The position numbers were made by a program, and so were the translations under genes. This document shows positions 1-31,611 of a DNA stretch of 31,891 bases, one piece after another (positions within the stretch are counted from its first letter, which is position 1; each line of letters opens with the position of its first letter). The notes under the pieces were generated by a model that made no database searches, was not told where the DNA came from, and worked only from the letters and a program-made list of their open reading frames with translations. The DNA comes from a virus (Duplodnaviria; Heunggongvirae; Uroviricota; Caudoviricetes), in the IMG/VR virus record IMGVR_UViG_2645727640_000044, positions 1-31,891 of that record; one strand, 5' to 3'.

Positions 1-3000
1 AATCCTGAGTTGGAACAATAACCGTTAGCCCTTCTTCAGCAGAAACCCGCACAGGAAAAGCCCTGCCTTCAACGTAAAAAACGCTGCATACATCATCTTC
101 TTTAAGGCTTGTTACAATGGAATGGATTGCGCGCTCATTAGTCTGATACGTCGAAAAATAACCTGCCGCATATGAACCACGATCAGTCCAGCCACCAGGC
201 ATTACCATTCCATTGAATTCGCAGTTATTCATTGCGTAATCACCACTGGCAGATGTGGTCGTTATAATCACTCTGGAAGCCAGCTCGCCAGTGCTGCCTG
301 TGGAACGCCGGAAAATAACTGGATACCACTTTCCACCAACTGCATTAGACGGCGCATTAAATGCGTACTGCCGCATTCCTTTTTTCTTATCCACTTCGCC
401 TTTGCTGTAAACATTAATGTTACTCAGGAAGCGATCTTTATCAGGAATATCCGCGCCGTTCTGGTTTTTTTGCAATGATCCAGCGGCTAATTCTACGGTT
501 TGCTCAAGATTTAAATCTTCCGCCGTTAGCTCAATATTTTTAGAACCATCAAACGAGACGCCGTTGATAGTACATGCTGTCTGCAACTTGGTCGCTGTCG
601 CTGCATTACCGGTTGTGTTCTGGTTACCAGCAATGTTTACACCCGGCAGGTTGATATCGGCAGAGCCATCAAACGCCACACCAGCAATTTTCCTTGCTGT
701 CTGCAATTTTGTGGCGGTTGCGGCATTACCAGTAGTGTTCTGATTACCAGTTGTATTCACACCAGGGATTGAATCCTTAGCGGTATATACCTGTGCCCAC
801 GCTGACCATGCTGCATCAGTGGTATCTCTTCGGGAGCGAATGAAAACCGGCGCATGTGCACCGCTCGTACCACTCCAGCCAATAAGCAACTCACCCTCGC
901 CAGCAGCACTCGCACCTTTCATGTGCAATACGTTGCCATACGTGGTCGGATAGCTATTGTTGTACGCCTCGTACATTTGAATGCCAGCAGTGCCTTGAGT
1001 AGAGCCGCTTAACGCCGTAACTCGGCCACGAGATACCAATGTATTAATGTTGATATCGCCTGAGCCATCAAACTTAACACCATTGATGTTTCTCGCTGTT
1101 TGCAACTTCGTAGCTGTTGAAGCATTACCGTTCAAACTACCATTTATGCCACCAGTAACATTTAGTCCATTACCAATAGACACAACACCGCTAGTATTAT
1201 TAATTGTAATCGGTCGCAAGCCGTTCCATGAACCTAACGTATCTCCTGATGCTGTTAGCATGAAATATGTGCTGCCGCCGTCATTACGGATAAAGAACCC
1301 AAAGCTACCGTAAGCAATGCGGAAACCATTTGCATATTTTGAAACGATCTCACCAGAAGATGTCAAACCTCCAGATAATGTACCACCGGTAAGAGGTAAT
1401 GCACCAACGTCAGATGCAGTTGGTTTGTTTTTCGTGTTATATACTCTTCGCCATCCTGGAGAATAATCTGTGCCATTAAATACATAGATAAACTCCGCAT
1501 TAGTGAGAGCACCGGAAACACTTGTCGTTGTGGCCGTTGTTATGCGGATCGTATAATTATTTGAACTACTACCGTTATTAAATACTTCTATAACAGCTCC
1601 TGCCAATGGAATAACGCCACAACCAGTTTCACTATTTGGTATGGTTGCGCTATTGGCATAGGCCCACGCACATCGAGCAATCCATGCCTTTGTGTTAAAG
1701 GCTCCATTATTTTGCAATAACGTCACTAACTGGGCTGTTGTTATTGCTCCGCCATTACTTCCTGTAGTTAACCAACCAGTAGGAGATGCCGGGCAACCTA
1801 TATTTGCTGGCGACAAGGAAATATTTGCCGAGCCGTCAAACGACACCCCATTGATAGTACGCGCAGTCTGCAACTTCGTAGCAGTAGCCGCATTACCTGT
1901 TGTATTCTGATTACCAGTCGTATTAACACCTGGCAAATTAATATTTGCAGTACCATCAAAGCTCACGCCGCCGATAGTTCTTGCCGTCTGTAGTTTTGTA
2001 GCAGTTGCGGCATTACCAGTGGTGTTCTGATTACCCGTAGTGTTTACACCTGGAAGATTAATATTGGCAGAACCGTCGAAACCAACTCCACCGATAGTTC
2101 TTGTCGTCTGTAATTTCGTTGCTGTACTTGCATTACCATTCAATGAACCAGTTAATCCGCCTGTAACAGACAACGGACCAGAAACTGTTCCTCCGGTTGT
2201 TGGCAGTGCTCCAATATCTGATGGCGTAGGTTTCTGATGTGAGCTATACATCGTATAAACAACACCATCGGTAACGCTGGCAGGCTTACTCGCTGAATAT
2301 GTTGGCGATGTATAAATAGAAACTGACGCATTTGCAGTACAATCCCAGTGGACATTTACACTCGTCGCATAATTGCCAATCTCAACATAAATATCATATG
2401 TATCGCCGGATGTATTCACCCATGCAAAATTAGTAAATCCAACCGATGTCCTTCGCCATAACGCACCAGTAAGACCTTTTGGATTTCCATTTCCCGCACG
2501 AAGAACAAGTTCAGATATACCAGCCTGCATAGGGGAGTTAACATTATATCCAGCACCACCAATCAATGTGATGTAAACGATGGAACTCGCTTGTGGCATG
2601 GTAACCGTAGCCAGTTTGAACCACCCAGCCCCGCCAGAGAAAGACATCGTTACTGAATTTAAAGTACCAATATCTTTCGGCGTTAATGTTATATCCGCAG
2701 TCAGTGCTTTTCCGTTAATTTTTCGGTTAGATGGCACCCTGCTATTCGCATTGTCATTGGCTGCTTTAACTGCTTTTGGCGTTGCGGCCAGCGATTCACT
2801 GGTGCTATCGACAGCACTGCTAAGTTTCACAACACCTTTAGTTGTAAGGCTTGCGTCTTCCATCGCAACTGCACCGGCAATCTCTTCAGCACGATCAGCA
2901 GCAGCTTCCGCACGGGTCGCAGCGGATTCAGCAGCAGTTTTGCTCTGAGATGCAGCCGTCGCACTGCCTGCCGCCTCTGTTGCTTTCGTGGATGCCGTTG

Positions 3001-4225
3001 AAGCACTGCCCTTCGCTTCTGATGCCTGCTTGGTCGCCTCATCTTTTGAAGCGGATGCTGAGGAGGCTGATGCAGACGCAGAACTTGCAGATTCAGCAGC
3101 TGCCGCCTTAGAGGAAGCAGCATTGTCTTCTGAAGTCTTTGCATTTGTTTCAGAGGTTTTTGCTGCCGATGCTGAATTTTTAGCAGCTGTAGCCTGACTC
3201 GTCGCCTCTGTCGCTTTTGTGGTAGCTGTTGTCGCTGATGACAATGCGCTATCCGCAGATTTTCCTGCCGCTGTTGCACTTGATGAAGCACTATCCGCAC
3301 TTGCTGAGGCTGCGCTTGCTGACGCTTCTGCCGCAGATTTCGAACTGTTTGCAGACGATGCACTCTGTTCGGCTGCCGTTTCAGATGCTTTTGCGTTTGC
3401 CTCTGACGTTTTTGCTGCCTTAGACGAATTTGCAGCTTCTGTTGCCGATGATGCTGCCGCGTTTGCGCTCGATGAAGCGTTAGTCTCTGATGCTTTGGCT
3501 GCATCCTTAGATGCAGAGGCACTGGACGCAGATGTTGCTGCCTCCGATGCTTTGGCCGACGCTACAGATGCTGATTCTGCTGCCGCTTCTTTTGCGGCTT
3601 GTGCGTTCGTTTCAGATTTTTTCGCAGCAGTTGCGCTCGCACTTGCAGCACTTTGTGAGGATGCCGCAGCGGATGCACTTTGAGACGCTTGAGAGGCTTT
3701 TTCTCCAGCGGTATTGGCGCTTTCTGCTGCTGCGGCAGCACTGGCCGCCGCCTCACGAGCTTTGTCGCCAGCAGCATCAATCGCGTCAGTGTTATTTTTA
3801 TACCACTCAACGTTTTCGTTGTGCTCGTTGACGATCTGCATTAGCGGCTTAACGGTCACTTCTGTACCGTCTTCACGCTCGATTGTCACCTCATCCAGAG
3901 CAGTCAACCAACTGCGCATGGACTTGGAATCAGCCGACATACGCGACATTAGTGCAGTAAAGCGCGCGCTAAACTGTGTTAAGTCGCCTTCATAGGTCGT
4001 AATGATTCGGCACGGAACTTCAGACTGAGTTTCGCCGGTATAAGGTTCTGAGAGAACAATGTTCGTATCACTGGTTACGCGCTTGATCTCATACAGCTTA
4101 TTGTCGGGGCCAATGACGATCATCCCCGGCAACACACCATTAGCTGTTACGTTCCAGGCTGTCCCTGCCCCAACCAGAGTATTGCTGCCCTGTGTAAATG
4201 TGATAGTACCTTCCCTGTACCACAT
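1..4225 (-). CDS. Side tail fiber protein, lambda Stf-like; 3' end lies beyond the window (C-terminus truncated)
   Basis: Minus-strand frame open from ATG at 4223..4225 (AAGGAG 11 nt upstream) to position 1; no complete minus ORF is listed here by the track, consistent with one uninterrupted frame. My translation begins MWYREGTITFTQGSNTLVGAGTAWNV, then an Ala/Ser/Lys/Glu low-complexity tract (KTSEANAKASETAAEQSASS...), then LSSAVDSTSESLAATPKAVKAA, which I recall as closely matching lambda Stf. Followed by at least five ~40-aa repeats of the phage tail-fibre repeat type (NTTGNQNTTGNAATATKLQTARTIGGVSFDGSANINLPGV). The plus-strand ORFs 417..4388 in the track are mirror frames of this gene. Confidence 0.8.
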   Translation of the reverse strand, partial: MWYREGTITFTQGSNTLVGAGTAWNVTANGVLPGMIVIGPDNKLYEIKRVTSDTNIVLSEPYTGETQSEVPCRIITTYEGDLTQFSARFTALMSRMSADSKSMRSWLTALDEVTIEREDGTEVTVKPLMQIVNEHNENVEWYKNNTDAIDAAGDKAREAAASAAAAAESANTAGEKASQASQSASAAASSQSAASASATAAKKSETNAQAAKEAAAESASVASAKASEAATSASSASASKDAAKASETNASSSANAAASSATEAANSSKAAKTSEANAKASETAAEQSASSANSSKSAAEASASAASASADSASSSATAAGKSADSALSSATTATTKATEATSQATAAKNSASAAKTSETNAKTSEDNAASSKAAAAESASSASASASSASASKDEATKQASEAKGSASTASTKATEAAGSATAASQSKTAAESAATRAEAAADRAEEIAGAVAMEDASLTTKGVVKLSSAVDSTSESLAATPKAVKAANDNANSRVPSNRKINGKALTADITLTPKDIGTLNSVTMSFSGGAGWFKLATVTMPQASSIVYITLIGGAGYNVNSPMQAGISELVLRAGNGNPKGLTGALWRRTSVGFTNFAWVNTSGDTYDIYVEIGNYATSVNVHWDCTANASVSIYTSPTYSASKPASVTDGVVYTMYSSHQKPTPSDIGALPTTGGTVSGPLSVTGGLTGSLNGNASTATKLQTTRTIGGVGFDGSANINLPGVNTTGNQNTTGNAATATKLQTARTIGGVSFDGTANINLPGVNTTGNQNTTGNAATATKLQTARTINGVSFDGSANISLSPANIGCPASPTGWLTTGSNGGAITTAQLVTLLQNNGAFNTKAWIARCAWAYANSATIPNSETGCGVIPLAGAVIEVFNNGSSSNNYTIRITTATTTSVSGALTNAEFIYVFNGTDYSPGWRRVYNTKNKPTASDVGALPLTGGTLSGGLTSSGEIVSKYANGFRIAYGSFGFFIRNDGGSTYFMLTASGDTLGSWNGLRPITINNTSGVVSIGNGLNVTGGINGSLNGNASTATKLQTARNINGVKFDGSGDININTLVSRGRVTALSGSTQGTAGIQMYEAYNNSYPTTYGNVLHMKGASAAGEGELLIGWSGTSGAHAPVFIRSRRDTTDAAWSAWAQVYTAKDSIPGVNTTGNQNTTGNAATATKLQTARKIAGVAFDGSADINLPGVNIAGNQNTTGNAATATKLQTACTINGVSFDGSKNIELTAEDLNLEQTVELAAGSLQKNQNGADIPDKDRFLSNINVYSKGEVDKKKGMRQYAFNAPSNAVGGKWYPVIFRRSTGSTGELASRVIITTTSASGDYAMNNCEFNGMVMPGGWTDRGSYAAGYFSTYQTNERAIHSIVTSLKEDDVCSVFYVEGRAFPVRVSAEEGLTVIVPTQD
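500..2160 (-). repeat. Tail-fibre-repeat coding units (about 120-nt period) inside the Stf-like gene
   Basis: Near-identical DNA blocks at about 545-775, 1050-1150 and 1830-2150 encoding ...GNAATATKLQTARTI.GV.FDGSANI.LPGV...; the plus-strand track ORFs ending ...AVCNFVAVAALPVVF are the antisense reading of these units. Confidence 0.7.
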
Positions 4226-4246
4226 GTTGAATATGCTCCTTGATTT

Positions 4247-4267
4247 GGTGGGCTATCCTTGCCCACC
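4247..4267 (-). other. Hairpin GGTGGGC-N7-GCCCACC in the 5' leader of the Stf-like gene
   Basis: Perfect 7-bp stem 18 nt upstream of the AAGGAG RBS; same stem sequence as the hairpin after the capsid gene (21243..21269); no U-tract. Confidence 0.35.
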
Positions 4268-4317
4268 ATTAAGTATGTACCTACTTATTTTTACCGATAT
4301 AAATATTTTTTTCTACA

Positions 4318-7300
4318 TTACAGAAGGCCAATTCTTACTCGTAGGACGTTGTTATCGTCATAAACGTCAATCCGCTGACCATTTATGACCAGTCGCCCAT
4401 TGCCGCCGCTATTACCGTTGATCTCAAGCGTTCCATTTTTGCCGAATCGCCATCCAGATCTACCGCTAACAAAATTGGTAGATTGCAGATCGCCTACTTT
4501 TGCATTGGTGATTGTGCCATCCTTGATATACGCTCCATTCATATAGGCGATACTGTTTTCGATAACAAATGGCGTTGTGATCTTCCCGTTAACAGAGTTG
4601 ACCAAACCAAACCTGTCCGCCTGAACCAAAAACTGAGATAGCCCAGTGGTGTCAATACCAAGCGCAATACCGGCAACATACTTCTGCCCTCCGCTCGTTG
4701 AAGTCTCCATTTTCAACGTCCACGCGGTTGACACTTTTTTGTTGGTATCAGCAATAGCTGTTGCCTGCTGTTGAATTGTCGCGGTATTTCCATCCACCTC
4801 TGCTTTCAGAGTATCGATTCGCCCACTCAGAGCATTATCTGCCTGCGTTCTCGCTGTCGTTTCAGTTGTTACCGCCGCGGAAATGTTGGCTGCCGTTTGA
4901 GACTCTAAGTTTGTGATTTGAGTCGCCAATGCAGCATCTTGCTCTGTACGCGTTTTCGTTTCGGTTGCTACAGCCGCTTTAATATCCTCTTTGTATTGAG
5001 AGGTCAGCTTGGTGATCTGAGACGACAACGCCGAGTCAGCATCAGTTCGAGCCTGCGTTTCAACTGCAACGGCCGCACTAATATCTTTCGCTGTCTGTGC
5101 TTTTAAACTTGAAACCTCTTTTGTTAAAGCGGTATCACCATCAGCACGAGCCGTTGTTTCTCTGGCAAGAGATGCCTCGAGATCATTAGCTTTTGCTGTA
5201 AGAGACGAAATCTGAGTGGACAATGCACTATCGGCATCAGTCCTTGCCTTTGTCTCTACAGCAACCGCTGCGGCAATATCAGTTCCGGTTTGTGCTCGCA
5301 GGCTGTTAATTTCTCGTGAGAGCGCCTGGTCAGCACTTGCTCTGGCCTCCTGCTCCTGAGTGATGGCAGCGGATATATCACCGTCAACCTTTGACTGAAG
5401 CTGGTTTATTTGTTTGGCTAACGCAGAGTCCCCGCTTGCTCGGGCCTCCTGCTCACTACGTATTGCAGCAGAAATATCATCATCAACCTTTGCCTGAAGT
5501 TGGGTGATCTGGCTTGCCAGAGCCGAATCTTCCGTTGCTCGGGCTTCTTGCTCTTCCTTAATAGCTGCGACGATATCGTTGCTTACTTTCGACTCAAGCT
5601 GAGTGATCTGTGTCGTCAGAGCTTCATCGGCAGATGTACGAGCCTCCTGCTCTGTACTAATCGCCGCGCTGATATCTCCTTCAAACTTAGATTGCAGCTG
5701 AGTGACACGCTTTGCCAACGCTTCATCGCCATCGGCACGAGCGGTGGACTCTTCCAGAATACTGGCCTTAATGTCTTCGCCAATTTCTACGCGAATTTCC
5801 TCAACCTTCGTGGCCATTGCAGACATATCATCAGCAAAGGTTTTCTGTGTTGTTGCGATCTTCGCGTTATTGACCATCTGCTTGTGCTGGTCTTCATCTT
5901 GACGAAGAGCCAGGTCAATATTTGTTTTGGCCAAAGCCTCAATGTTCGTAGTCAGTTCTGCACTGGCACGATCGACCTCTGCAACCGTCTTTTTCATTTC
6001 TTCAACGGCAGCGGAGCTTTCCTCTACCGTTGACTGCAACACTTCCAGTTGTTTAGCGTTTGCAGCATCACCTTCAACACGAGCCTCGCTTTCCTTAGCA
6101 ATAAGAGCCGCCGCTTCATCTCTTGCAGCCTTTATTGCCTCGACTGTATTAGCGAGAGCTTTATCGTGTTCAGATACGGTATTTTCGATTTCAACAATTG
6201 CAGCATCAGTAGCATCAATTTTTTCAAACGCTTCATTGACCTTGTCGATCGTTGCCGAAACCTCACCTTTAAGCTCGGTTTGTGCGTTCTCCAAAGCATC
6301 GCTACGCTCGTTGAATTTTATTTCAAAATCCGCGAGGTTATCGCTGAACTGCTTATCTAATTCAGCTATATCTTCCTTAACGTCGTTTACCGCCCCCTCC
6401 AAAGATTCGACGCTCTGGTTGATATGCTCATTTAACTCGTCAACGGCTTCTTGAGAGGCTTTGCTGTTGATGTCCTCAAGCAGAGCCTGACCAAGCTCGG
6501 AAGATGTAATTTTGCCAGTCAGGAACGACAGTACATCGCGAGTTGTCGCCTCTGTACCCAAGTTTGAGTTCGGAGGACTTAACATACCTCGCTTGTTCGA
6601 TGCTCGAACCCAGTAATACCACGTTTCGCTATCCCCAAGACCAGCATGTGTAAAGGTGGTGCTTGCAGACTCTGCGATCAGTTTCGCCGTATCCAGATTA
6701 TTGGTCTGGGACGCGTAAACATTAATGTGATCAAGGTCTACCGAATCTGGATTAACCCAATTCAGTATCACATTACGATAGTCTCCAACGGCCGTTAATG
6801 ACGTTGGGGCATCTGGCGGTGTCATTGTGCCCAGCACCTGATAAACGGTACTGATAATCTCTGTTTTTTTACCGTTGAATGAAACCGCATACAGCTGGAA
6901 GTCGTAGCGTCCATTCTCCGCAACATTAACGATTTCGTATTGCTCTTCGGTTACACGCGCCGATTGCCAGTTCGATACATTGTTTTCATCAGAACGTCGC
7001 CAACTGATCCAATACTCTGGAGATTTCCCTTCCCATGTTGCAGTCAGTTTTACTGACAGGTTGCCAGGGCTTGAGAGATAAGTCCCTTCGGTGATTTGCA
7101 AATTAGACGGCTTGGAGTAAGTCGGGTCCAATACCGTCGTATTTTGCGGGATAAGCGTTGCACCATTGTCGATCGCCTCATATTTAGACGGATTGTTCTC
7201 AACAGCGGTGATGTCAAAGCTACCCGGCGTTTCCCCCTGCGCGATGTTAACGATGCGAACGCGCATAGGTTCGAGGTCTGGTTCTGTAATAGTCCAGACG

Positions 7301-9045
7301 CCGTTCAAAACAGGCGTTTCAGCCGAAGACAGGGCTTTTGAAAACGTAACTTTTGTTATATTTTCGCCAGTTTCAAGAACATCGCGTTCAACGATTTTGC
7401 CTTCCTGATTCAGTATTCGAATAAAGCAGCCGCCTTTGGCTAACGACACAGGCGCATCGAGTGTGACGCTGTTTTTGGTAAACGCCACAATTCGACCTGA
7501 GTTACGTTTGCCTGCGCGATATTTGTTCTGAATCAGAACGGTTTCACCAGGCATCAGAAATGACGCGTCTAAGCCGGCAGTAAATGTAATTACATCCGAC
7601 TCCATTCTGGCGGTATATAAAAGCCATAAACCAACTCGGTGAGCCTGCCCTCGGCTTGTACAGCCAAATGCTACGACTTCTGTCTTACGCTCACCATAAC
7701 GGCGCATTGCGTCCTGATCTTCAACGTACTCGATGTTTTGCTTATAACCGTCCTCCTTGTTGTTGTAGGTTACGAGCGCAACGGATGGGCGATCTTTACG
7801 CGCAGAACCTTTATAGGTAAACAATCCATCTTTGACGTTAGAGTTGGTAAACATCATTACCGGATCTGATGGGCTATCCTGCATGATGTTAACCATCCCA
7901 CCAGCCCAAAACACCATGCCGCGGAATGCTCCAGCAATATCCTGAATTAGCCGGTATGCGTCCTGTCGACTGGTGATCTGCGTATTGATTGCAAAGCGTT
8001 TCTCTTTGCCACCAAAGCCATCATCGACCTCTTCGTCACAATATCGACCAATCTGGTACAACTGGCCAAGGTCAATCATAGATTCCGACACATACTGACC
8101 AAGGCCATATCGAGCATTGGTCAGCAAATCAAAGAGAATCCACGCGGGGTTCGAAGAAGACAACAGCTTAAAAGTACCATCCCATACCCCAGCGTAAGTG
8201 TTACTTGACTCGTTATAGTTTGAAGGTACTCGAATTTTTAGGCCACGCACCAGATAAGAGCGAGATGGCATGGTGCTGCCGAATTGCTCAGAGTTTACCT
8301 TCAATCCAACCAAAACAGAGTTTGGATAGTTCATCGGTGTATCGACAATTTCCCCGATTGAATCCACCCATGTATCGTTATAGAGATACTGGCTACTGTT
8401 ATCATCGGTAATACGGACTACACGAACCTTGTATGCGCGTCCAGGCTTAGGCAGCTTCAGCTCGTAGCTACGGTAATAAACGCCGGTCTTCTTTGCTGTT
8501 AGCTTAATGCCAACGCTTTTTTCACCTTCCGCGACCACATCTACAAATGTTGAGTCGCCATTTGCTATCTGGAACTTGTACTCAACAGTCGTACCGTTCG
8601 TGTCACCAGTTTTTTTATCTATGCTTCGCAAAGAAGGAAACTTCATGATGACACGAACCCGATCAGCTTCATCGTTATCGATTGAAACCGTTACATAATG
8701 TGTTTTTTTTAACTGGATATTGACGGATTTAGGCGTTTCAACGAAATCAAAGCCAGACATTGGAGTCTGGTCTTGTGAACCGTCGCGAAAATCCCATGTG
8801 ATTCCGCTGAAGTTGGAGGAACCGTCTTCATTTACAATCGGCAGATCGTCGATAAAAATAGATCTTGTGCCATTTACTAAGCCGCCAATTACCCCTTCCC
8901 CAAGAAGATCGAGGATAGCGGCCATTGCACGAGAATTTACGGTATCGTCGGCTTCAACCGGTGTACGGCTGGAGCTTTTGCTGCTTTTTTTACCACCCGC
9001 ACCGGCAATAAACAGCGGTAGCTTTTTCTTCTTGAACTGTTCCAT
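4318..9045 (-). CDS. Central tail fiber / host specificity protein, lambda J-like (about 1575 aa)
   Basis: Track ORF 4318..9051 (1577 aa) starts on TTG; ATG at 9043..9045 has AAGGA 10 nt upstream. Size, position after the I-like gene, and an N-terminal region typical of J-family tip proteins. Contains a long coiled-coil stalk with ten 33-aa tandem repeats before a C-terminal domain of about 150 aa. Confidence 0.85.
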   Translation of the reverse strand: MEQFKKKKLPLFIAGAGGKKSSKSSSRTPVEADDTVNSRAMAAILDLLGEGVIGGLVNGTRSIFIDDLPIVNEDGSSNFSGITWDFRDGSQDQTPMSGFDFVETPKSVNIQLKKTHYVTVSIDNDEADRVRVIMKFPSLRSIDKKTGDTNGTTVEYKFQIANGDSTFVDVVAEGEKSVGIKLTAKKTGVYYRSYELKLPKPGRAYKVRVVRITDDNSSQYLYNDTWVDSIGEIVDTPMNYPNSVLVGLKVNSEQFGSTMPSRSYLVRGLKIRVPSNYNESSNTYAGVWDGTFKLLSSSNPAWILFDLLTNARYGLGQYVSESMIDLGQLYQIGRYCDEEVDDGFGGKEKRFAINTQITSRQDAYRLIQDIAGAFRGMVFWAGGMVNIMQDSPSDPVMMFTNSNVKDGLFTYKGSARKDRPSVALVTYNNKEDGYKQNIEYVEDQDAMRRYGERKTEVVAFGCTSRGQAHRVGLWLLYTARMESDVITFTAGLDASFLMPGETVLIQNKYRAGKRNSGRIVAFTKNSVTLDAPVSLAKGGCFIRILNQEGKIVERDVLETGENITKVTFSKALSSAETPVLNGVWTITEPDLEPMRVRIVNIAQGETPGSFDITAVENNPSKYEAIDNGATLIPQNTTVLDPTYSKPSNLQITEGTYLSSPGNLSVKLTATWEGKSPEYWISWRRSDENNVSNWQSARVTEEQYEIVNVAENGRYDFQLYAVSFNGKKTEIISTVYQVLGTMTPPDAPTSLTAVGDYRNVILNWVNPDSVDLDHINVYASQTNNLDTAKLIAESASTTFTHAGLGDSETWYYWVRASNKRGMLSPPNSNLGTEATTRDVLSFLTGKITSSELGQALLEDINSKASQEAVDELNEHINQSVESLEGAVNDVKEDIAELDKQFSDNLADFEIKFNERSDALENAQTELKGEVSATIDKVNEAFEKIDATDAAIVEIENTVSEHDKALANTVEAIKAARDEAAALIAKESEARVEGDAANAKQLEVLQSTVEESSAAVEEMKKTVAEVDRASAELTTNIEALAKTNIDLALRQDEDQHKQMVNNAKIATTQKTFADDMSAMATKVEEIRVEIGEDIKASILEESTARADGDEALAKRVTQLQSKFEGDISAAISTEQEARTSADEALTTQITQLESKVSNDIVAAIKEEQEARATEDSALASQITQLQAKVDDDISAAIRSEQEARASGDSALAKQINQLQSKVDGDISAAITQEQEARASADQALSREINSLRAQTGTDIAAAVAVETKARTDADSALSTQISSLTAKANDLEASLARETTARADGDTALTKEVSSLKAQTAKDISAAVAVETQARTDADSALSSQITKLTSQYKEDIKAAVATETKTRTEQDAALATQITNLESQTAANISAAVTTETTARTQADNALSGRIDTLKAEVDGNTATIQQQATAIADTNKKVSTAWTLKMETSTSGGQKYVAGIALGIDTTGLSQFLVQADRFGLVNSVNGKITTPFVIENSIAYMNGAYIKDGTITNAKVGDLQSTNFVSGRSGWRFGKNGTLEINGNSGGNGRLVINGQRIDVYDDNNVLRVRIGLL
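4765..5760 (-). repeat. About ten tandem 99-nt (33-aa) coding repeats inside the J-like gene
   Basis: Protein repeats of the form DISAAI.xEQEARAxxDxALxxQIxQLxSKVxx read directly from the translation; the DNA shows the same periodicity. Boundaries approximate. Confidence 0.7.
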
Positions 9046-9062: not shown

Positions 9063-9656
9063 TTACATTAGCTGGTCAATCGTGATTGAAGAACTCACAA
9101 CCTGTGAGCCAACCAGAATTTCCTCGCCATAGATAAGTTGTACTGGGTTGCCCTGGTTTTCTGTATTTTGAGGGCCGTCGAAATAATAAGAGTTCGAGTT
9201 ATCTGCCTGTCTCACACTTTCGTTAGTGGCTTGCGGCGATATGATTTGTGATATGCCGCCCATCATCAGTGACAAACCGAGAGGTGCTAAAGCAGGCATC
9301 ACTACCGCCGATACAACCAACAAAGCGGCCCCTACTACCGTCTGAAACCACCCAAAAGCAGATCCACCGCTTCCTCGCGGAACAGGTGTAATGCGGATTT
9401 TGGCAATGTTGTCAGACTGCCCCATCATCTGATATTCACTTTCGTCAACAGACCACTTGTGGCCCTGTTTATTGGTGATCTGGATGTGGTAACGGTCATA
9501 GGTTTTGATATTGCGCTTCATCCATGCTTTAAACCCAGGCTTGTTGGCCTCAATTAAATCCAGAGCCTGTTTTGTATTGCGCACCTTTAGATGCCAGTGG
9601 CGGCCAAAATGTTTGGCCATAGGGCCGCCAAGCTGCACATGAACTAACTCAGACAC
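9063..9656 (-). CDS. Tail assembly protein, lambda I-like
   Basis: 197-aa ORF in the position lambda I occupies (after K, before J); hydrophobic central segment GWFQTVVGAALLVVSAVVMPALAPLGLSLMMGG. Start is GTG at 9656 with AAGGGAG upstream; overlaps the K-like gene end by 13 nt. Confidence 0.75.
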   Translation of the reverse strand: MSELVHVQLGGPMAKHFGRHWHLKVRNTKQALDLIEANKPGFKAWMKRNIKTYDRYHIQITNKQGHKWSVDESEYQMMGQSDNIAKIRITPVPRGSGGSAFGWFQTVVGAALLVVSAVVMPALAPLGLSLMMGGISQIISPQATNESVRQADNSNSYYFDGPQNTENQGNPVQLIYGEEILVGSQVVSSSITIDQLM

Positions 9657-10441
9657 GTCTCATCTCCCTTGAGCAAGTCTCTGTGACGCAAGTGATGCGT
9701 CGTATGTTTCTGATACATTCCGCCGTAATAAGCACGACAACTAAGACGGTCGATCTGGTGATGAAGAATCATTCCATCGCCGATATAAACCGCGCAGTGA
9801 TCTGGCATTTTCCCGTATTGAATAAAGAAGACGTCCCCACGTTGAGGCTCTGTTCCAGGTGCAAGCCGTACCAATCCCTCGTTTCGGTAGTTCTGGTCGA
9901 GAATGTCGTTATCGCCGGTGTACCACGATGGAATATGCAGGTGTGCGTTCGGGTTAAGCTCGACGTTAAACTCACGCTTCAAATAGTCCCGACACAACAT
10001 CCAGCAATCGAATACGCCAAATACATACGGTCTACCCAGGTATGGCATTTCGAAACCATCAGGTGTGATCACATTCATCTCGCTAAAATGGAAAGGGGCA
10101 TCTCCCTCAACATTCTTGCGAATAGCCAGAATCATCCACGGAACTTCCGTCGCTTCACAGCCTGCACGATCGGCATCAGATGCTTCTGCTGATTCATCAG
10201 TATGTGAATGCCAGATTGCGATTACGTCACCTGCATCCTCTGCCGCCATAATGTCGTCAACGTGCATTACAAAAGTGTTCTGCGGGTTCTCCGAAACATT
10301 TCGCGCTTCCATAAAGCGATATTTGTCGCCATTAGTTCTCACCAGAAAGCCACACGCTTCATTAGGGTAGCGATTTATGGCGCAGAGATAGATTTGCTGC
10401 ATAACATCAGAGCCAAGCTCAGGGATTGCTTTATTACCCAT
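9644..10441 (-). CDS. Minor tail protein, lambda K-like (JAB/MPN + NlpC/P60 domains)
   Basis: JAMM-like motif IWHSHTDESAEASDAD (HxH...D) and an NlpC/P60-type Cys/His region (FDCWMLCRDY ... HHQ); ATG at 10441 with GGAG upstream. Track start 10468 is TTG. Confidence 0.85.
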   Translation of the reverse strand: MGNKAIPELGSDVMQQIYLCAINRYPNEACGFLVRTNGDKYRFMEARNVSENPQNTFVMHVDDIMAAEDAGDVIAIWHSHTDESAEASDADRAGCEATEVPWMILAIRKNVEGDAPFHFSEMNVITPDGFEMPYLGRPYVFGVFDCWMLCRDYLKREFNVELNPNAHLHIPSWYTGDNDILDQNYRNEGLVRLAPGTEPQRGDVFFIQYGKMPDHCAVYIGDGMILHHQIDRLSCRAYYGGMYQKHTTHHLRHRDLLKGDETCLS

Positions 10442-11132
10442 ATCGCGTAGCTCCAATAAACCCGCCAAAATGGATCACTCCGTTGGCAAAATAATTCCGA
10501 CGCGCATTACAGGCGTCATAACGTTTTGTGCAGTAATCAGCACCAGACATAGACGTCTGCTGGTTATTTTTGTCGAAATATGGACCGGTATAGCCGCATT
10601 CTGGCCCTCGGTATTTCCACGGGCAGGTGTTTTTAATGATCTGACGATACGGCAGTTGCACCCCCATCAAATCGAACACACTGGACAATTCAAACTCGAC
10701 AACCTGATGAGTTTCGAGAGTTTTCTGTTCGATAAACCACATTTCATCCGGGAAATGTTGGTTTGGATCTGCTGTTGGGTTGCCGTCTTTAAAATTAACG
10801 GCATCGAGGAAGCGAGCCAGCGTCATCTTGCGAATAATGCGGCAGCCAACAAGATCGTCGTTCGCCTGAACTTCCGCAGAGACGGTTCCGGCAAAGTTCG
10901 ATACCTGAATTTTTGGACGTGGCAACGTTCCCTGGCCAGTTTTGTCAAAGCCTGATGCTTTGATTGGCCACGGCTCGTATGTCACTCCTTGCCAGACGAC
11001 CGGTTGCATCAGTTCGTTTGTTCCGGCGTGGAAGAATAACTTCCCCCCTGAAGTTGTGTTCGACATATCCAGTACGAACAACTCAATGAGTGCAGAGGGA
11101 GATAAGCTCTGAATATCAGCTTTAATTCCCAT
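10434..11132 (-). CDS. Minor tail protein, lambda L-like
   Basis: Matches to lambda gpL as I recall it: VVWQGVTYEPWPIKASGF, RPKIQVSNF, ARFLDAVNFKDGNPTADP, NTCPWKYRGPECGYTGP, GVIHFGGF, including the conserved cysteines. ATG at 11132 has AAGGA 7 nt upstream; the track's longer ORF starts at ATG 11165 with a weak RBS. Confidence 0.85.
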   Translation of the reverse strand: MGIKADIQSLSPSALIELFVLDMSNTTSGGKLFFHAGTNELMQPVVWQGVTYEPWPIKASGFDKTGQGTLPRPKIQVSNFAGTVSAEVQANDDLVGCRIIRKMTLARFLDAVNFKDGNPTADPNQHFPDEMWFIEQKTLETHQVVEFELSSVFDLMGVQLPYRQIIKNTCPWKYRGPECGYTGPYFDKNNQQTSMSGADYCTKRYDACNARRNYFANGVIHFGGFIGATRYG

Positions 11133-11214
11133 TGTTTCATCCTTGAAATAAGTAGGCGCTAACATCCTGTCAGCGCCACAATGATAGTAAATTAGTACTT
11201 ACTTATCCAGATAC

Positions 11215-11550
11215 TTAAGCCTCAAATACTTGTCTGAATGTAGCAGTTAAGACACAGTACCCCTGATATCGCTTGACCGTATGACTGTCACATACAACTA
11301 CAATCCGTTTTCCTCTTGGATTAACCCAATAGAACGACTCAACGCCTGCTCGCTCAGTCAGGAAGTCATCGATTGCATTAATTTCGTTGTATGATCTGGT
11401 AAAGGTTAACGACCATTCTTCTTTAATACGATTAAGACCTTGAGCCTGTCGCTGCTCGTAGTCATCACCAAAATTAAGTACCGTTACATTCGGTTTTACG
11501 CTTTTTTCAGATTCGTAATCTGGATACCAATTAAACGTTTGTCTTTCCAT
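11215..11550 (-). CDS. Minor tail protein, lambda M-like
   Basis: 111-aa ORF between tape measure and the L-like gene, the size and position of lambda gpM; ATG with AAGGA upstream. Confidence 0.7.
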   Translation of the reverse strand: MERQTFNWYPDYESEKSVKPNVTVLNFGDDYEQRQAQGLNRIKEEWSLTFTRSYNEINAIDDFLTERAGVESFYWVNPRGKRIVVVCDSHTVKRYQGYCVLTATFRQVFEA

Positions 11551-11565
11551 CTCACATCCTTGTGA

Positions 11566-11587
11566 GACTGCCCCGGTCGGGGCAGTC
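11566..11587 (-). other. Hairpin between the tape measure stop and the M-like gene start
   Basis: GACTGCCCC-GGTC-GGGGCAGTC (9-bp stem) adjacent to a second small inverted repeat CTCACA/TGTGAG (11551..11566) that overlaps the M-like gene RBS. Confidence 0.3.
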
Positions 11588-27071: not shown

Positions 27072-27962
27072 TTATGCCGGTAAAGCAATTTCTAACGGTT
27101 TATCCAAAGGTTGTTTGTCGAATGCCAGCAGTGGCAGCGTGTCAGGCAGTCGACGGCCAAAGTCAGGGTTTCGGTACACACCATACAACGGAGACGTAAA
27201 GCTCAGGTTGTGAATGTCCTTGAGCAGCTTCACAATGCTGGCCTCGTCCACCAGACTGTCGGCAATGTCCTGAATCGTCGTGCCACGATTCCGCCCAGCT
27301 TTTGCCAGGGAACTGTTCTTATGGTAGTCCGCCACCAAATCGCGCAGCGCACGGCGACGACGAGACTCGCTCATAGCGAACAACTCTTTGACGATCGCCT
27401 CGTTATCACCCGGGTCGGAGCGGAAATGGCGCTGGAACACACGCAGTGCACTTTCATAGCTCTTCGGTCGCTCAGGGCGGATGAACTTAAACCCTGCTTT
27501 CATGGCGAAGGGATTGTATTTGCTCATCGAGGACTGGATCTCAATGATTGGCCGGTCATGCATCCTGCTAACCAGGTTAATCATTCGATAAGAGACGCCT
27601 ACGCCACGATACTGAGTATCCACAACTGAGCGACTGATCACCGCAAAGTTGTTATTCACGTACCGACCCCAGTACTGGTTAGCCACGGTGGTATTAGTGG
27701 TTGGTTTCAACTTAGGAAACATGCGGTGGCGAGGTGCCAACAGTAGTTTCGGGTAAGCCATAACCACGACGCCCACCAGACGGTCATCCAGTTCGCAGCG
27801 ATAGTATGTTGGCGCGAAAGGTTTGCCGTCTGTTTTGTAGTGAAGCGACTTAAGAGCGTGCCAGTCCTCTACAGTTCCCTTTGTGACAGTCATTCGCTCC
27901 AGAAAGTCCAGATGACGCGGAAACTCTTCAGGGCGGTAGCGTTTGATGATGATGTCCGTCAT
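27072..27962 (-). CDS. GNAT-fold acyltransferase-like protein with C-terminal extension of about 120 aa
   Basis: GNAT motif A-like AVISRSVVDTQYRGVGVSYRMINLV and motif B-like NPFAMKAGFKFI, read by eye. ATG overlaps the upstream stop as ATGA. Confidence 0.5.
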   Translation of the reverse strand: MTDIIIKRYRPEEFPRHLDFLERMTVTKGTVEDWHALKSLHYKTDGKPFAPTYYRCELDDRLVGVVVMAYPKLLLAPRHRMFPKLKPTTNTTVANQYWGRYVNNNFAVISRSVVDTQYRGVGVSYRMINLVSRMHDRPIIEIQSSMSKYNPFAMKAGFKFIRPERPKSYESALRVFQRHFRSDPGDNEAIVKELFAMSESRRRRALRDLVADYHKNSSLAKAGRNRGTTIQDIADSLVDEASIVKLLKDIHNLSFTSPLYGVYRNPDFGRRLPDTLPLLAFDKQPLDKPLEIALPA

Positions 27963-28624
27963 GAATGGACCTCATCATGACTACCATTGTGATATTCCAC
28001 CTTCACGCGTTCTTTGTAGTGCTTGGTGATCTGCATATCCGGGCGCAGCGCGTTCTTCAGGTCTTCGTGAGTCGTCGCCACCATTACCGTCGCACCAACC
28101 TTTCGAGCGGCACGCTGGAGGTTAGATGCCACAACCTGAGCGGTTACACGGTCTAGAACAGCACCGAACTCGTCAGCAGCCCACACTTTAGCGCCTGACT
28201 CAATCAGTTTGGCAATCTTGAGACGATATTTCTGACCGTCTGACATTTCAGAAGGCTTGCGAACAAACAGATATGCATCGTTCAGACCAGCCATAGATAA
28301 CAACCCAAGCGCATCGCTGGTCGTTTTGCCCAACTGATCGATGACGTTAACCTCATTATCGAAGGTAAAATCATCGATGGAGGCTACAGACAGCCCTTCA
28401 TCCTTCATCTGTCGTTGCAACTCGCGCAGCACAACGGATTTGCCGGAACCGGATTGGCCGGTGATATACACCACATCGCCCTGCTTCACTTCCAGCTCCA
28501 GATTGTCGTAAAGCGTCCACTCTTTTTCGTCCAGGCCAAGCCCGAACGACTCAGCGATTTCCAACGTGCGCGTGGTTTTATTTACGCGTGTCTGAAACGA
28601 TACGTTGATGATGTATTTGCTCAT
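27959..28624 (-). CDS. ABC-type P-loop ATPase (nucleotide-binding domain only)
   Basis: Walker A ITGQSGSGKS, signature-like MSDGQKYRLKIAKL, Walker B AKVWAADEF, H-loop VATTHED; ATG overlaps the upstream stop as ATGA; GGGGAG RBS. Confidence 0.75.
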   Translation of the reverse strand: MSKYIINVSFQTRVNKTTRTLEIAESFGLGLDEKEWTLYDNLELEVKQGDVVYITGQSGSGKSVVLRELQRQMKDEGLSVASIDDFTFDNEVNVIDQLGKTTSDALGLLSMAGLNDAYLFVRKPSEMSDGQKYRLKIAKLIESGAKVWAADEFGAVLDRVTAQVVASNLQRAARKVGATVMVATTHEDLKNALRPDMQITKHYKERVKVEYHNGSHDEVHS

Positions 28625-29289
28625 GCAGCCATCTCCCCAGAAGAGATCTTCTCCGCATATGCCACAAATGCGTCTACCCCGCTTTCTCCCGTCATTTCTT
28701 CCATGTGGGCAAGCAAATCACCAACAACAATGGCAGAGCCAGCAGGGAGCGTTTTAAAGCCCAATACGTCGACAACACGTACTTCTTCCGCTGCAACTTC
28801 ACGACTGATCTCGGTGTGTTCATCCTTCTGTCGTTTAGTTTCTTCGCCAAGATCGATAACTAGCGAGTCGGTGTCCATTTCTTCTGTCATACTGCCAACG
28901 AGAACATTCAACTCACGCTCTTCAAAGCCGAAAACCTCGATATCGTCCAGAACAAGCGACTCAAGCTCTTTCTGTAGCTTAATTGCATCGTAATCAATGC
29001 TGGCAAGTCGGTTATCTTCAAGGCGCTTCGCACGAACCTCGTCATCACTGAGATCATCGCGAACAATAACCGGTACGCGCTCAAGTCCAGCAAAAATTGC
29101 AGCCTCACGGCGGCCGTGGCCAGTAATAATTACGTCGTTCTTATCGACCGTAATTGGCTGGTCAAATCCGCGCTTTTTAATGGCTGCGGCCAGATCTCGG
29201 ATCTGCTGTTCATCATGCTTTTTGGCATTCATCTCATAGGGAATAAGATCTGCCGGGTCGCGATATACGATTTCAAACTTTTTGGTCAT
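28621..29289 (-). CDS. ParB/Srx-fold nuclease-domain protein (second copy)
   Basis: GxxRxxA motif ITGHGRREAAIFAG characteristic of the ParB N-terminal domain; ATG at 29289 with AAGGAG upstream, overlapping the upstream stop as TAATG. The track's longer ORF (to 29322) starts further upstream. Confidence 0.7.
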   Translation of the reverse strand: MTKKFEIVYRDPADLIPYEMNAKKHDEQQIRDLAAAIKKRGFDQPITVDKNDVIITGHGRREAAIFAGLERVPVIVRDDLSDDEVRAKRLEDNRLASIDYDAIKLQKELESLVLDDIEVFGFEERELNVLVGSMTEEMDTDSLVIDLGEETKRQKDEHTEISREVAAEEVRVVDVLGFKTLPAGSAIVVGDLLAHMEEMTGESGVDAFVAYAEKISSGEMAA

Positions 29290-29969
29290 TACATACGCTC
29301 CTTGTAGTAGTCGACCAGCCACACCAGAGCCTCACCAGCGTTCTCCATTTCATTACCGGTGTTAATAGCCTGCTCTTTGATGATGTTTTTTATGGTTTCT
29401 GCAACACGATCTGACGCATCGAAAGTTACTTTGAAGCGCATGGTCTGATGTTCCGCACCCACACGTTCGGTTTTCTCTCGTTTGTCGGTATCGACAGGCT
29501 CATCACTACCACGAGACAACGCCTCCAGTGCTTCAAGGTCGATTGCCGCCTCTTTTGCTAAAACCATCGAGATTTCGTCGTCATACGGGGCGATTTCAGA
29601 CAGTTGATAGTCAAGTTCTGACTGAATTTCTTCAATGAAGCGTTGCAATGCGATTTGGTCGTCTTCACCGTATCGCTCGTTGTCCACCAGTGACATCTGT
29701 TTAGCTACGACATCGCTAATTTTGCCCACAGAAAGCACCGGAACCGTTGAAATTCCTTGCTCAATAGCGGCACGCCAGCGATGTTCGCCGCCGAGGATTT
29801 CAAAAAATCCATCTTCAAGTTCACGAGCCAAAATTGGCTTAAAAAAGCCCAATTTTTCGATAGAACCTTTCAGTTTTTCAAAATTCTGCGCACCAACCGA
29901 ATTGGTGTTCCAGGTATTCGGGCGAAGGTTGGCAACATCAACCTGCAAAATCGTGATTTTTACATCCAT
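29289..29969 (-). CDS. ParB/Srx-fold nuclease-domain protein (first copy)
   Basis: ParB box II-like ILGGEHRWRAAIEQGISTVPVL (compare GERRxRA). Start uncertain: ATG at 29969 (MDVKITIL...) or GTG at 29987; neither has a strong SD. Confidence 0.65.
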   Translation of the reverse strand: MDVKITILQVDVANLRPNTWNTNSVGAQNFEKLKGSIEKLGFFKPILARELEDGFFEILGGEHRWRAAIEQGISTVPVLSVGKISDVVAKQMSLVDNERYGEDDQIALQRFIEEIQSELDYQLSEIAPYDDEISMVLAKEAAIDLEALEALSRGSDEPVDTDKREKTERVGAEHQTMRFKVTFDASDRVAETIKNIIKEQAINTGNEMENAGEALVWLVDYYKERM

Positions 29970-30003
29970 TTTATTGCTACAATCCACTAAGTAATCACTT
30001 ACT

Positions 30004-30012
30004 TATTATAAT
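30004..30012 (+). promoter_or_regulatory. Candidate -10 element in the divergent spacer between the ParB operon and the helicase gene
   Basis: TATAAT at 30007..30012 within the palindromic ATTATAAT, about 40 nt upstream of the helicase ATG; no good -35 recognised. Confidence 0.3.
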
Positions 30013-30051
30013 AGCCAAATAACATACAAAAGGCACTAAGGAAAGAGGTTT

Positions 30052-31611
30052 ATGACTGTTCGGATTGTATCTAACGCAGTAAATGCGCTTATTTCTGGCG
30101 CAGATGACAAGGTAAAGCAACTGGTGCAGCAAATGTTGAGCTACGAAGTCGAGACTGGCGACTGGAAGGGCACAAGCACGATGTTCAACTGGAGTAAAAA
30201 CTCGTTCCCTGCTGGCTTTGCCAAGCCTGTAGCGGCGAACTTGAACAAGGCGGGCATCAGATGTGTTCATATCCGCAAAGACAAAGCCCCGGCGCTTGGT
30301 AAACCAAATCCGGCGGTTAACCCATTCCCATACAATCCTGATTATGCGTATCAGGATCAGACTGTGGAAACACTAGTTCGAGAGGGAATGATGATTGCGC
30401 AAATCGCTACTGGTGGCGGGAAATCTAACGTTGCCTGTAAAGCAGCTGCACGTATCGGTCGAATGACATTATTTTTAACAACCCGCTCTGTTCTGATGTT
30501 TCAAATGGCCGAAAACTTCCAGAGATCCATCGACTACCGCGCCAAAAATGGCGAACCGTGGTTAAAAGACCAAAAGGTTGGAGTCATTGGCTCGGGTGAG
30601 TTCCAGGTATCACGACATATCAACGTCGCTACAGTTCAAACTCTGGCAAGTTTCCTTGAAGAACCACCACGCGATGCAACTCCAGATAAGAAGAGCTACC
30701 ACCTCAAACGTCGGGACTTGGTGAAACGCTTCCTTTCAAGTGTGTCTCTGCTTATTCTGGAAGAGGCGCATGAGTCTTCAGGTTCTAATTTCTATGACAT
30801 TGCCAGATTATGTGTGAACGCAGACTATCGTCTGGCGCTTACGGCCACGCCGTTCATGAAGGATTCGACGGAAGCCAACATGCGTCTGATGGCGGTGGCC
30901 GGGCGAATTGAAATTAAAGTCACAGAAAAGTACCTGATTGATCGAGGCATTCTGGCAAAGCCGTACTTCCTTTATCATAAAGTTGCCTACAAGCCAGACG
31001 AGGCCAGAATCAAGGCCGAACTTGCCAACAAACACCTCAATTTTAGAGTTGGTATGAGCACCGCCTACCAAAAGGCTTATCAGTTGGGGATCGTGTATAA
31101 TTTGGGACGTAACGAGGCCATAGTGCGCGAGGCATTGCTCTATAAGCAACATTCTCTCAATTGTATGACTCTAGTTCGTCTTAAACGCCACGGGCAAATC
31201 CTGATGGAGATGATGAAGGAGTCAGGCCTTAGAGTTGACTTTATCTATGGGGAATCGAACCAGGCGACAAGACAAGCAAAGCTGAACAGTTTAGCGTCTG
31301 GCGAAATAGATGTTTTAATAGGCTCGACTATTCTGGATGTCGGTGTTGATGTGCCAAGCGTTGGTGCGGTCATTCTTGCTGGTGGTGGGAAAGCAGAAGT
31401 TGAAATGAGACAACGTGTCGGTCGTGGCTTACGAGCCAAGAAGAATCAGGCAAACGTGTGTTTTATCACTGATTTCATTGACATTAGCAACAAATACCTG
31501 TTGTCTCACTCTTATGAGCGAAAACACATCATCGACACCACACCTGGCTTTGCGGAAGGTGTATTGCCTATTGATGGCGCATTCGATTTTGGAGTTCTGA
31601 AACGAGATTAG
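30052..31611 (+). CDS. SF2 (DEAD/DEAH-like) helicase
   Basis: Walker A IATGGGKSNVA, motif II LILEEAHESSG, motif III LALTATPF, motif VI QRVGRGLRA; ATG with AGGAAAGAGG RBS. Confidence 0.85.
   Translation: MTVRIVSNAVNALISGADDKVKQLVQQMLSYEVETGDWKGTSTMFNWSKNSFPAGFAKPVAANLNKAGIRCVHIRKDKAPALGKPNPAVNPFPYNPDYAYQDQTVETLVREGMMIAQIATGGGKSNVACKAAARIGRMTLFLTTRSVLMFQMAENFQRSIDYRAKNGEPWLKDQKVGVIGSGEFQVSRHINVATVQTLASFLEEPPRDATPDKKSYHLKRRDLVKRFLSSVSLLILEEAHESSGSNFYDIARLCVNADYRLALTATPFMKDSTEANMRLMAVAGRIEIKVTEKYLIDRGILAKPYFLYHKVAYKPDEARIKAELANKHLNFRVGMSTAYQKAYQLGIVYNLGRNEAIVREALLYKQHSLNCMTLVRLKRHGQILMEMMKESGLRVDFIYGESNQATRQAKLNSLASGEIDVLIGSTILDVGVDVPSVGAVILAGGGKAEVEMRQRVGRGLRAKKNQANVCFITDFIDISNKYLLSHSYERKHIIDTTPGFAEGVLPIDGAFDFGVLKRD

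Follow-up and report, generated by a model that had tools for sequence, protein, structure and literature searches.

Tail fibers that are mosaics, with their joins at conserved motifs, have been recognized since the early 1990s; they were reportedly described by Haggard-Ljungquist in 1992, by Sandmeier in 1992 and 1994, and by Hendrix and Duda in 1992. Here we analyze the tail fiber gene at the left end of a 31,891-nucleotide stretch of Caudoviricetes DNA (IMG/VR virus record IMGVR_UViG_2645727640_000044, positions 1 to 31,891), hereafter called the window. A preliminary description of this DNA, made without database searches, had read the gene as a very long side fiber of the lambda Stf type. 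Our comparisons make it highly probable that window 1-4225 instead holds the first 1408 codons of a mosaic fiber of an SSU5-like phage-plasmid, whose distal cassette, the equivalent of one arm of a P1-type S-U module, was swapped in together with a tfa gene from phages of the P1/Mu/P2 type.

The closest described systems are the fibers of SSU5-like phage-plasmids and those of P1, Mu and lambda. Escherichia phage Cyrano (pLF82) is a ciprofloxacin-inducible SSU5-like phage-plasmid, to which siphovirus virions have been assigned by their dimensions (PMC9928086). In SSU5-like relatives the gene order is J-like gene, fiber and then lysis genes; the fibers of Cyrano (CYRAN_21), SSU5 and Escherichia fergusonii pRHB19-C05_2 (WP_244983776) are encoded at this same locus, directly after the J-like gene. 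Our search of the literature on SSU5 phage-plasmid tail fibers found no paper dealing with the present one. P1 S, by comparison, begins with a baseplate-binding end, and P1 has an invertible segment with an invertase and cix sites. Mu S, with its alternative form S' and the accompanying U protein, measures ~500 amino acids (aa), and the lambda fiber is encoded by orf-401 and orf-314, the latter being the C-terminal half of Stf.

Results

The fiber gene and its relatives

By megablast, the fiber region falls among SSU5-like phage-plasmids. It matches Cyrano at 88%, pRHB19-C05_2 at 99.97% nucleotide identity over window 654-4400, and hundreds of non-mobilizable plasmids of ~110 kb from Escherichia, Enterobacter and Yersinia. 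At the protein level the N-terminal 140 aa are identical to those of the Cyrano fiber, with 85% identity over aa 1-1198, and the SSU5-like phage-plasmid tail fiber family phrog_3299 matches at positions 1-1162 of 1385 (E 0). The locus is syntenic with the SSU5-type tail module of Cyrano and pRHB19-C05_2, and the rest of the window carries a matching SSU5-type structural module, intact, along with ParB-like and helicase genes. These sequence comparisons place the fiber in an SSU5-like siphovirus phage-plasmid of Escherichia.

Translation of window 1-4300 directly yields a minus-strand open reading frame (ORF) that runs from an ATG at 4225-4223 to base 2, spanning 1408 codons with zero stops. 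A frame interruption within 1..4225, which the preliminary description had named as the result that would speak against its reading, was sought in this translation and none was found. On the source contig, NCBI annotation places the start of the gene at this same ATG, and a Shine-Dalgarno sequence, AAGGAG (4236..4241, minus strand), can be read off the sequence 10 nt upstream of it. The coding sequence (2..4225, minus strand) thus represents the first 1408 of a predicted 1647 codons, its 3' end being cut by the edge of contig and window. The source contig, located via its identical J-like protein (which occurs on three contigs), is JHTM01000034.1 of the Escherichia coli draft assembly GCA_001506145.1. 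Because this contig ends 4 nt past window base 1, the absent C-terminus of the fiber is an assembly break and no trait of the gene. The early estimate of more than 1400 aa lacking a C-terminus therefore stands; of the phrase 'very long, still incomplete', the frame is indeed open to the edge, and the incompleteness is that of the contig.

Database proteins that share the fiber's N-terminus are nearly all short 'partial' entries, one cluster of which has 154 members, and the gene seems to break short-read assemblies routinely. In the relative pTHO-010-2 the annotated fiber starts 92 codons late, leaving a gap of 370 nt after J.

Two junctions bound a probably imported distal cassette

The identity to pRHB19-C05_2 is near-perfect from window position 654 upward and random below 650. 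The boundary, at 653..654, falls inside the fifth of six shaft repeats, just after the residues ...FDGSADI, with SSU5-like backbone on its right and what appears to be an imported distal cassette on its left. In all, 70 plasmid records cover at least 80% of the query, and most stop at 650/654 (24 of 25 among the matches listed). Colinearity with Cyrano ends earlier, at ~1044, the end of repeat 4.

To the left of the window the gene could be followed in other records. A 30-mer from the window edge retrieved ten IMG/VR contigs, among them a viral contig, L015, that differs from window 1-1077 at just 3 of 1077 nt (99.7% identity) and spans the 653/654 junction. L015 carries the fiber 239 codons further to a stop, giving a composite protein of 1647 aa, compared with 1341-1385 aa in SSU5-like relatives. 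Its tip is a homologue of the C-terminal tip of Mu S (PDB 5yvq residues 312-503, E 2e-15 over 192 aa, at low identity). The next ORF after the fiber, of 176 aa, encodes a Caudo_TAP (Tfa) chaperone (PF02413, E 3e-37) and is followed by an ORF of 84 aa; the position of tfa lies beyond both the window and the contig end, and the gene was read in L015. The leftward extension that the preliminary description had proposed, with a view to the C-terminus and any tail fiber assembly gene, thus recovered both in this relative.

The second junction can likewise be read directly, at L015 947/948. Just past the tfa stop and hairpin, the backbone resumes from 947 downward with 99% identity to pRHB19-C05_2. 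The insert, L015 948-2877, consists of the last ~455 fiber codons, tfa and a hairpin (AAGGCCCG-ctat-CGGGCCTT) right behind the tfa stop. Downstream of it L015 retains a 75-nt remnant of the former fiber 3' end, stop codon included. In the pRHB19-C05_2-type fiber the replaced segment encodes a Peptidase_S74 domain, an intramolecular chaperone (E 5.7e-7), which was not found in the C-terminal 397 aa of the L015 fiber; conversely, pRHB19-C05_2 has no Caudo_TAP gene downstream of its fiber. The pRHB19-C05_2 and Cyrano fibers thus differ from the window fiber in the distal ~455 aa and are not accompanied by tfa; their tips are of the Peptidase_S74 and gp37_C types, respectively, whereas the window-type fiber has a Mu-S-type tip plus tfa.

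Compared as a whole, the cassette is matched best in E. coli P1-like plasmids of ~97 kb, with 92.6% identity over 92% of its length. Its counterpart there is one arm of the invertible S-U module, with the match beginning in the short spacer between opposed tfa genes, and the donor-type locus comprises an invertase and two such opposed genes. Identity is ~90.5% to P7 and RCS47 and 83% to P2 H/G. The L015 Tfa has 91% identity to the P1-type U protein, and residues 229-1072 of the S protein of a P1-like plasmid are colinear with aa 778-1647 of the composite fiber, ~870 aa at 62.5% identity, where the final 239 aa come from L015 only.

Exchange is also seen elsewhere in the fiber, again with boundaries at conserved motifs. 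In pTHO-010-2 an unrelated module takes the place of the window's first knob between ~2137, the start of repeat 1, and ~2748, just past the collar. Modular exchange, suggested in the preliminary description from the repeats and the mosaic architecture, is therefore visible by sequence comparison with relatives, in the 653/654 and L015 947/948 junctions; for the receptor-binding end it is directly seen.

Other features of these relatives touch on the same region. Positions 6630-7084 of pTHO-010-2 (L002) are 72% identical to window 9-463, the most distal knob in the window; there this module directly follows the collar, so the same knob can sit at different positions along the shaft. At least three unrelated tips occur in SSU5-like fibers, namely gp37_C (Cyrano, L001 5547-6446), Peptidase_S74 (pRHB19-C05_2, L003 4421-5200) and the Mu-S type with Tfa (L015 1509-2699). 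The 84-aa ORF, which lacks a Pfam match, is conserved between the fiber (or tfa) and the holin in SSU5-like plasmids (L015 558-812 and L003 4103-4357, both minus strand), and pRHB19-C05_2 has an additional 188-aa ORF in the fiber-holin interval, also with no Pfam match. One further IMG/VR contig, IMGVR_UViG_2690316161_000025, contains the distal fiber and tfa module twice, at 1130-3459 and 9250-11579, 8120 nt apart and in the same orientation; this could be a duplication or an artefact of assembly or circularization.

Domain organization of the fiber

All parts of the fiber described here lie on the minus strand. The N-terminal anchor (aa 1-140, 3806..4225) is, on tblastn matches and a structural model, of the SSU5/T1-like siphophage type. 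By tblastn it is 100% identical to Cyrano and 85% to SSU5, and matches fiber N-termini of Pseudomonas, Pectobacterium, Edwardsiella and Providencia siphophages at 25-33%. A medium-confidence AlphaFold (AF2) model of the anchor matched fiber N-termini of the eiAU, Rtp, T1, Tls and KLPN1 type in BFVD (E 1e-10 to 1e-4). Lambda is absent from both the tblastn and the fold matches, and Pfam gave no family for the anchor, even at E up to 5.

The anchor is followed by an Ala/Ser-rich tract (aa 141-455, 2861..3805; 38% Ala, 23% Ser), as the preliminary description had seen. Since its 7-residue periodicity is strong (lag-7 autocorrelation z = 10), we read it as a heptad coiled coil, probably a trimeric shaft of ~315 aa, in preference to plain low complexity. 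Part of the tract is 71% identical to lambda orf-401 residues 205-286 by BLASTP. Next comes the collar motif KGVVKLSSAVDSTSESLAATPKAVKAANDNANSR (aa 456-500, 2726..2860), which aligns with lambda Stf 354-394 and also with Mu S residues 105-155 (PDB 5yvq, 8ju3). Over 83 aa, the segment VKLSSAVDSTSESLAATPKAVKAA with its surroundings, taking in the collar and the end of the tract, has 67% identity (E 6e-22) to residues 312-394 of lambda orf-401, so the earlier statement that tract and motif match lambda Stf proved accurate.

ORFs are also present on the plus strand inside the fiber gene, at 417-743, 2580-2948, 3219-3683 and 3511-3831, mostly facing the Ala/Ser tract. We rejected them as real genes, since they most likely arise as artefacts from the composition of the Ala/Ser coding strand. 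A comparable antisense ORF, orf206b, is annotated inside lambda stf.

Beyond the collar, knobs alternate with shaft repeats. Knob module A (aa 501-695, 2141..2725) is exchangeable; it has no Pfam or PDB relative, and the Yersinia phages vB_YpM_5 and vB_YpM_6 have it in common with this fiber at 85%. Shaft repeats 1-3 (aa 696-815, 1781..2140), built on the 40-aa unit GNAATATKLQTARxIxGVxFDGSxNIxLPGVNTTGNQNT, lead into a globular domain like that of Mu S' (aa 808-925, 1451..1804; PDB 8ju3 residues 201-334, domain E 3e-27) and a domain related to Gp34_trimer and to Mu S 242-339 (aa 907-1027, 1145..1507; Pfam PF21446, E 2.4e-28; PDB 5yvq, 4uxe, 5nxf). By repeat comparison, repeat 4 (aa 1032-1071, 1013..1132) is separated from repeats 5 and 6 (aa 1165-1244, 494..733) by knob module C (aa 1072-1164, 734..1012), which matches the tail fiber families phrog_1833 and phrog_20242 and is 72% identical in nucleotides to P1 Sv and Sv'. 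The last part in the window is a Mu-S-type linker, LQKNQNGADIPDKDRF, with distal knob D (aa 1245-1408, 2..493). The linker corresponds to PDB 8ju3 residues 163-203; with knob D it would begin the imported receptor-binding half. Further IMG/VR viral contigs match this region at 96-97% identity and a P2-like H gene does so at 80%, and P1 Sv' is 92% identical over window 428-610.

The six repeats of ~40 aa occupy window 2021-2140, 1901-2020, 1781-1900, 1013-1132, 614-733 and 494-613. Across all pairs they share 53-78% nucleotide and 53-88% amino-acid identity; in the best pair 17 codons are identical, 18 differ synonymously and 5 non-synonymously. Since the DNA has diverged with many of the differing codons synonymous, these sequences indicate old protein repeats kept by selection and not recent DNA duplications. 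The preliminary description had reported at least five repeats with nearly identical DNA copies. The repeats themselves are present; their DNA is far less alike than claimed, and the pair cited as an example, 1850-1969 versus 1970-2089, is 75% identical.

Pfam searches at lax thresholds with the anchor, the Ala/Ser tract, knob A, the repeats, knob C and the distal knob found only Gp34_trimer, and NCBIfam held no family for the fiber. When three tandem repeats were searched against PDB sequences, phage L Dec was matched weakly at its C-terminus (E 0.095) and nothing else came up.

Comparison with lambda, T4, Mu and P1 fibers

With lambda Stf the fiber shares its position after J, the Ala/Ser heptad tract, the collar and, as seen in L015, a Tfa-family chaperone, whose C-terminal 65 aa are 45% identical to lambda Tfa. 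The resemblance is confined to these features. BLASTP against orf-401 gave no alignment of the fiber with the N-terminal ~130 aa of Stf, orf-314 gave no significant alignment (best E 0.92), and no Pfam Stf N-terminal or fiber-repeat family matched even at E 5. T4 gp34 (PDB 4uxe, 5nxf) shares the Gp34_trimer domain only, ~100 aa. From the comparison with lambda stf and T-even fibers that had been proposed, then, the collar and coiled coil emerge as lambda-like and one domain as T4-like; the distal ~870 aa resemble P1 and Mu, and the anchor is of the SSU5/T1 type.

Several parts are recognizable by sequence in Mu S/S' (PDB 5yvq, 8ju3), the fiber served by chaperone U: collar, linker, S'-like knob and gp34-trimer-like domain, to which L015 adds the tip. 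The window-type fiber is more than three times as long as Mu S, with extra knobs, repeats and the coiled coil. P1 S, like its counterparts in P7, RCS47, D6 and P1-like plasmids, has the 40-aa repeats and the collar in common with the window fiber; its anchor binds the baseplate, whereas the anchor here is of siphovirus type, and neither the window fiber nor L015 has the invertible segment, invertase or cix sites of P1. By sequence, therefore, a description as a lambda-Stf-type fiber fits less well than one in which an SSU5-type anchor and shaft are joined to a distal half-fiber of the P1/Mu type, homologous in distal shaft and tip to P1 S, Mu S and P2 H. Of the original label, the Stf position, coiled coil and collar remain, the N-terminal domain and C-terminal half being unrelated; the fiber probably works similarly to Stf in the Stf position.

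Neighboring genes

Directly upstream of the fiber is a gene for a J-like tail tip protein of 1575 aa (4318..9045, minus strand; Pfam FNIII-A_GpJ, Phage-tail_3, Phage_Tail_Tip), compared with 1132 aa for lambda J. Its ORF ends at 4318, which leaves a spacer of 92 bp with no lom-like gene in it, in agreement with the ~90 bp first estimated. The spacer contains a hairpin (4247-4267, minus strand) with a 7-bp G+C-rich stem, GGTGGGC-aaggata-GCCCACC, and no T-run behind it; a scan of the spacer for promoter and terminator consensus sequences found none. In the J-like protein, ~350 aa ahead of the C-terminal tip domain consist of tandem units of ~33 aa, 'DISAAI..EQEARA..D.AL..QI.QLQSKV' (window ~4900-5950), and Tandem Repeats Finder reports a 99-nt period at 5336-5553. 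These units look like a long coiled-coil insertion in the central fiber.

At the far end of the window, 27072-31611, the packaging genes are flanked by a pair of neighboring ParB-like genes (28621-29322 and 29289-29987), by two genes that match ABC-transporter families (27072-28624) and by a helicase gene in divergent orientation (30052-31611, plus strand).

Discussion

The comparisons above suggest how the fiber may be built and used. We propose a trimeric fiber of ~1647 aa resembling 'beads on a string', which its N-terminal SSU5/T1-type anchor would fix to the tail tip beside the J-like protein. Its shaft would comprise the coiled coil of ~315 aa and the collar, then ~870 aa of P1-S-colinear knobs split by the six 40-aa repeats, and a separate Tfa (Caudo_TAP) chaperone would fold the Mu-S-type tip. 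If Mu, P1 and P2 are a guide, core sugars of lipopolysaccharide are the most likely ligand of the tip, bound in a reversible adsorption step that would gather virions on the cell surface ahead of commitment to infection by the J-like protein. The last ~455 codons, tfa and the terminator hairpin would have entered as one cassette via recombination inside repeat 5, and such a cassette swap would be expected to change host range. This mechanism leans on the fiber biology of Mu, P1, P2 and lambda.

Several points weigh against this account. The anchor model is of only medium confidence (predicted local distance difference test, pLDDT, 65), because the alignment of homologues is shallow, these being nearly all short partial fragments; a Foldseek comparison of the model with the PDB gave nothing at E <= 0.001. 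The tip and tfa lie outside the window and are taken from L015, which is 99.7% identical and shares the junction. The best donor-type sequences are 92-93% identical, so that the true donor is probably another sequence. The direction of replacement, from Peptidase_S74 type to Tfa type, has the 75-nt remnant as its one piece of evidence. Finally, the trimeric state, attachment site and receptor are drawn by analogy for a fiber known here from its sequence.

Other explanations of the locus fare less well than the mosaic fiber. It is unlikely that the fiber is an elongated orthologue of lambda Stf, as the preliminary description had it. The position directly after the J-like gene, the identities to orf-401 (67% in the collar, 71% in a portion of the Ala/Ser tract), and the 45% identity between the last 65 aa of the L015 Tfa and lambda Tfa would all fit such an origin; nevertheless the Stf N-terminal ~130 aa and orf-314 do not align, Pfam Stf N-terminal and repeat families are missing even at E 5, lambda does not appear among the tblastn or fold matches of the anchor, and the distal 870 aa are P1-S-like. 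Even less probable is that recombination left the hybrid gene as a scar without function in a phage-plasmid that is itself defective. The element is known from sequence and not from virions, and the late annotated start of the pTHO-010-2 fiber, by 92 codons, might be taken as a sign of decay; yet the frame is intact over 1408 codons (1647 in L015) behind a good Shine-Dalgarno sequence, the repeat copies differ mainly at synonymous sites, which points to purifying selection, the whole structural module in the window is intact, and an identical J protein is found on three contigs.

The remaining two explanations concern the junction and the distal end, and we find both hard to credit. A mis-assembly at 653/654, in which a repeat common to both led to the plasmid fiber being joined to the fiber of a P2- or P1-like prophage resident in the same cell, would be in keeping with a contig that ends 650 nt past the junction, with a distal module that many other E. 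coli prophages and IMG/VR contigs carry at 93-97% identity, and with the predominance of partial database copies, a mark of a gene that breaks assemblies. However, the separate assembly L015, with its 3 differences, has the same junction and returns beyond tfa to SSU5-like backbone that is 99% identical to pRHB19-C05_2. The DNA of the repeats, at only ~60-78% identity, has also diverged too far to mislead an assembler. The window might also start inside an invertible host-range switch of the Cin/Gin type, as in P1, Mu and p15B, given that the distal module and Tfa are closest to the arms of P1-type invertible C segments, which carry an invertase and two opposed tfa genes. A search of the window and L015 for a P1 cixL-like site and the AAACCNNGGTTT core found no cix-like site, and L015 has just one tfa, directly behind which the SSU5-type backbone begins; it contains neither another arm nor an invertase.

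Returning to the mosaic fiber, a more specific history can be put forward, to which we give about an even chance: a recent swap between co-resident E. coli phage-plasmids, in which a P1-type S-U arm was copied into an SSU5-like fiber at a 40-aa shaft repeat and a self-chaperoning Peptidase_S74 tip gave way to a Mu-S-type tip dependent on Tfa. On this view the short conserved repeats, like the collar, would be universal splice points at which the fibers of myoviruses and siphoviruses swap receptor-binding ends along with the chaperones for them.

Because mosaic fibers joined at conserved motifs are already known, the locus leaves the current understanding of fiber evolution unchanged. What it offers is a clean exchange of tip and chaperone as one cassette, resolved to the base pair, with both junctions visible and a remnant of the replaced gene kept, between partners as distinct as an SSU5-like phage-plasmid and phages of the P1/Mu/P2 type. 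Such cases could help to predict or engineer the host range of phage-plasmids that spread resistance.

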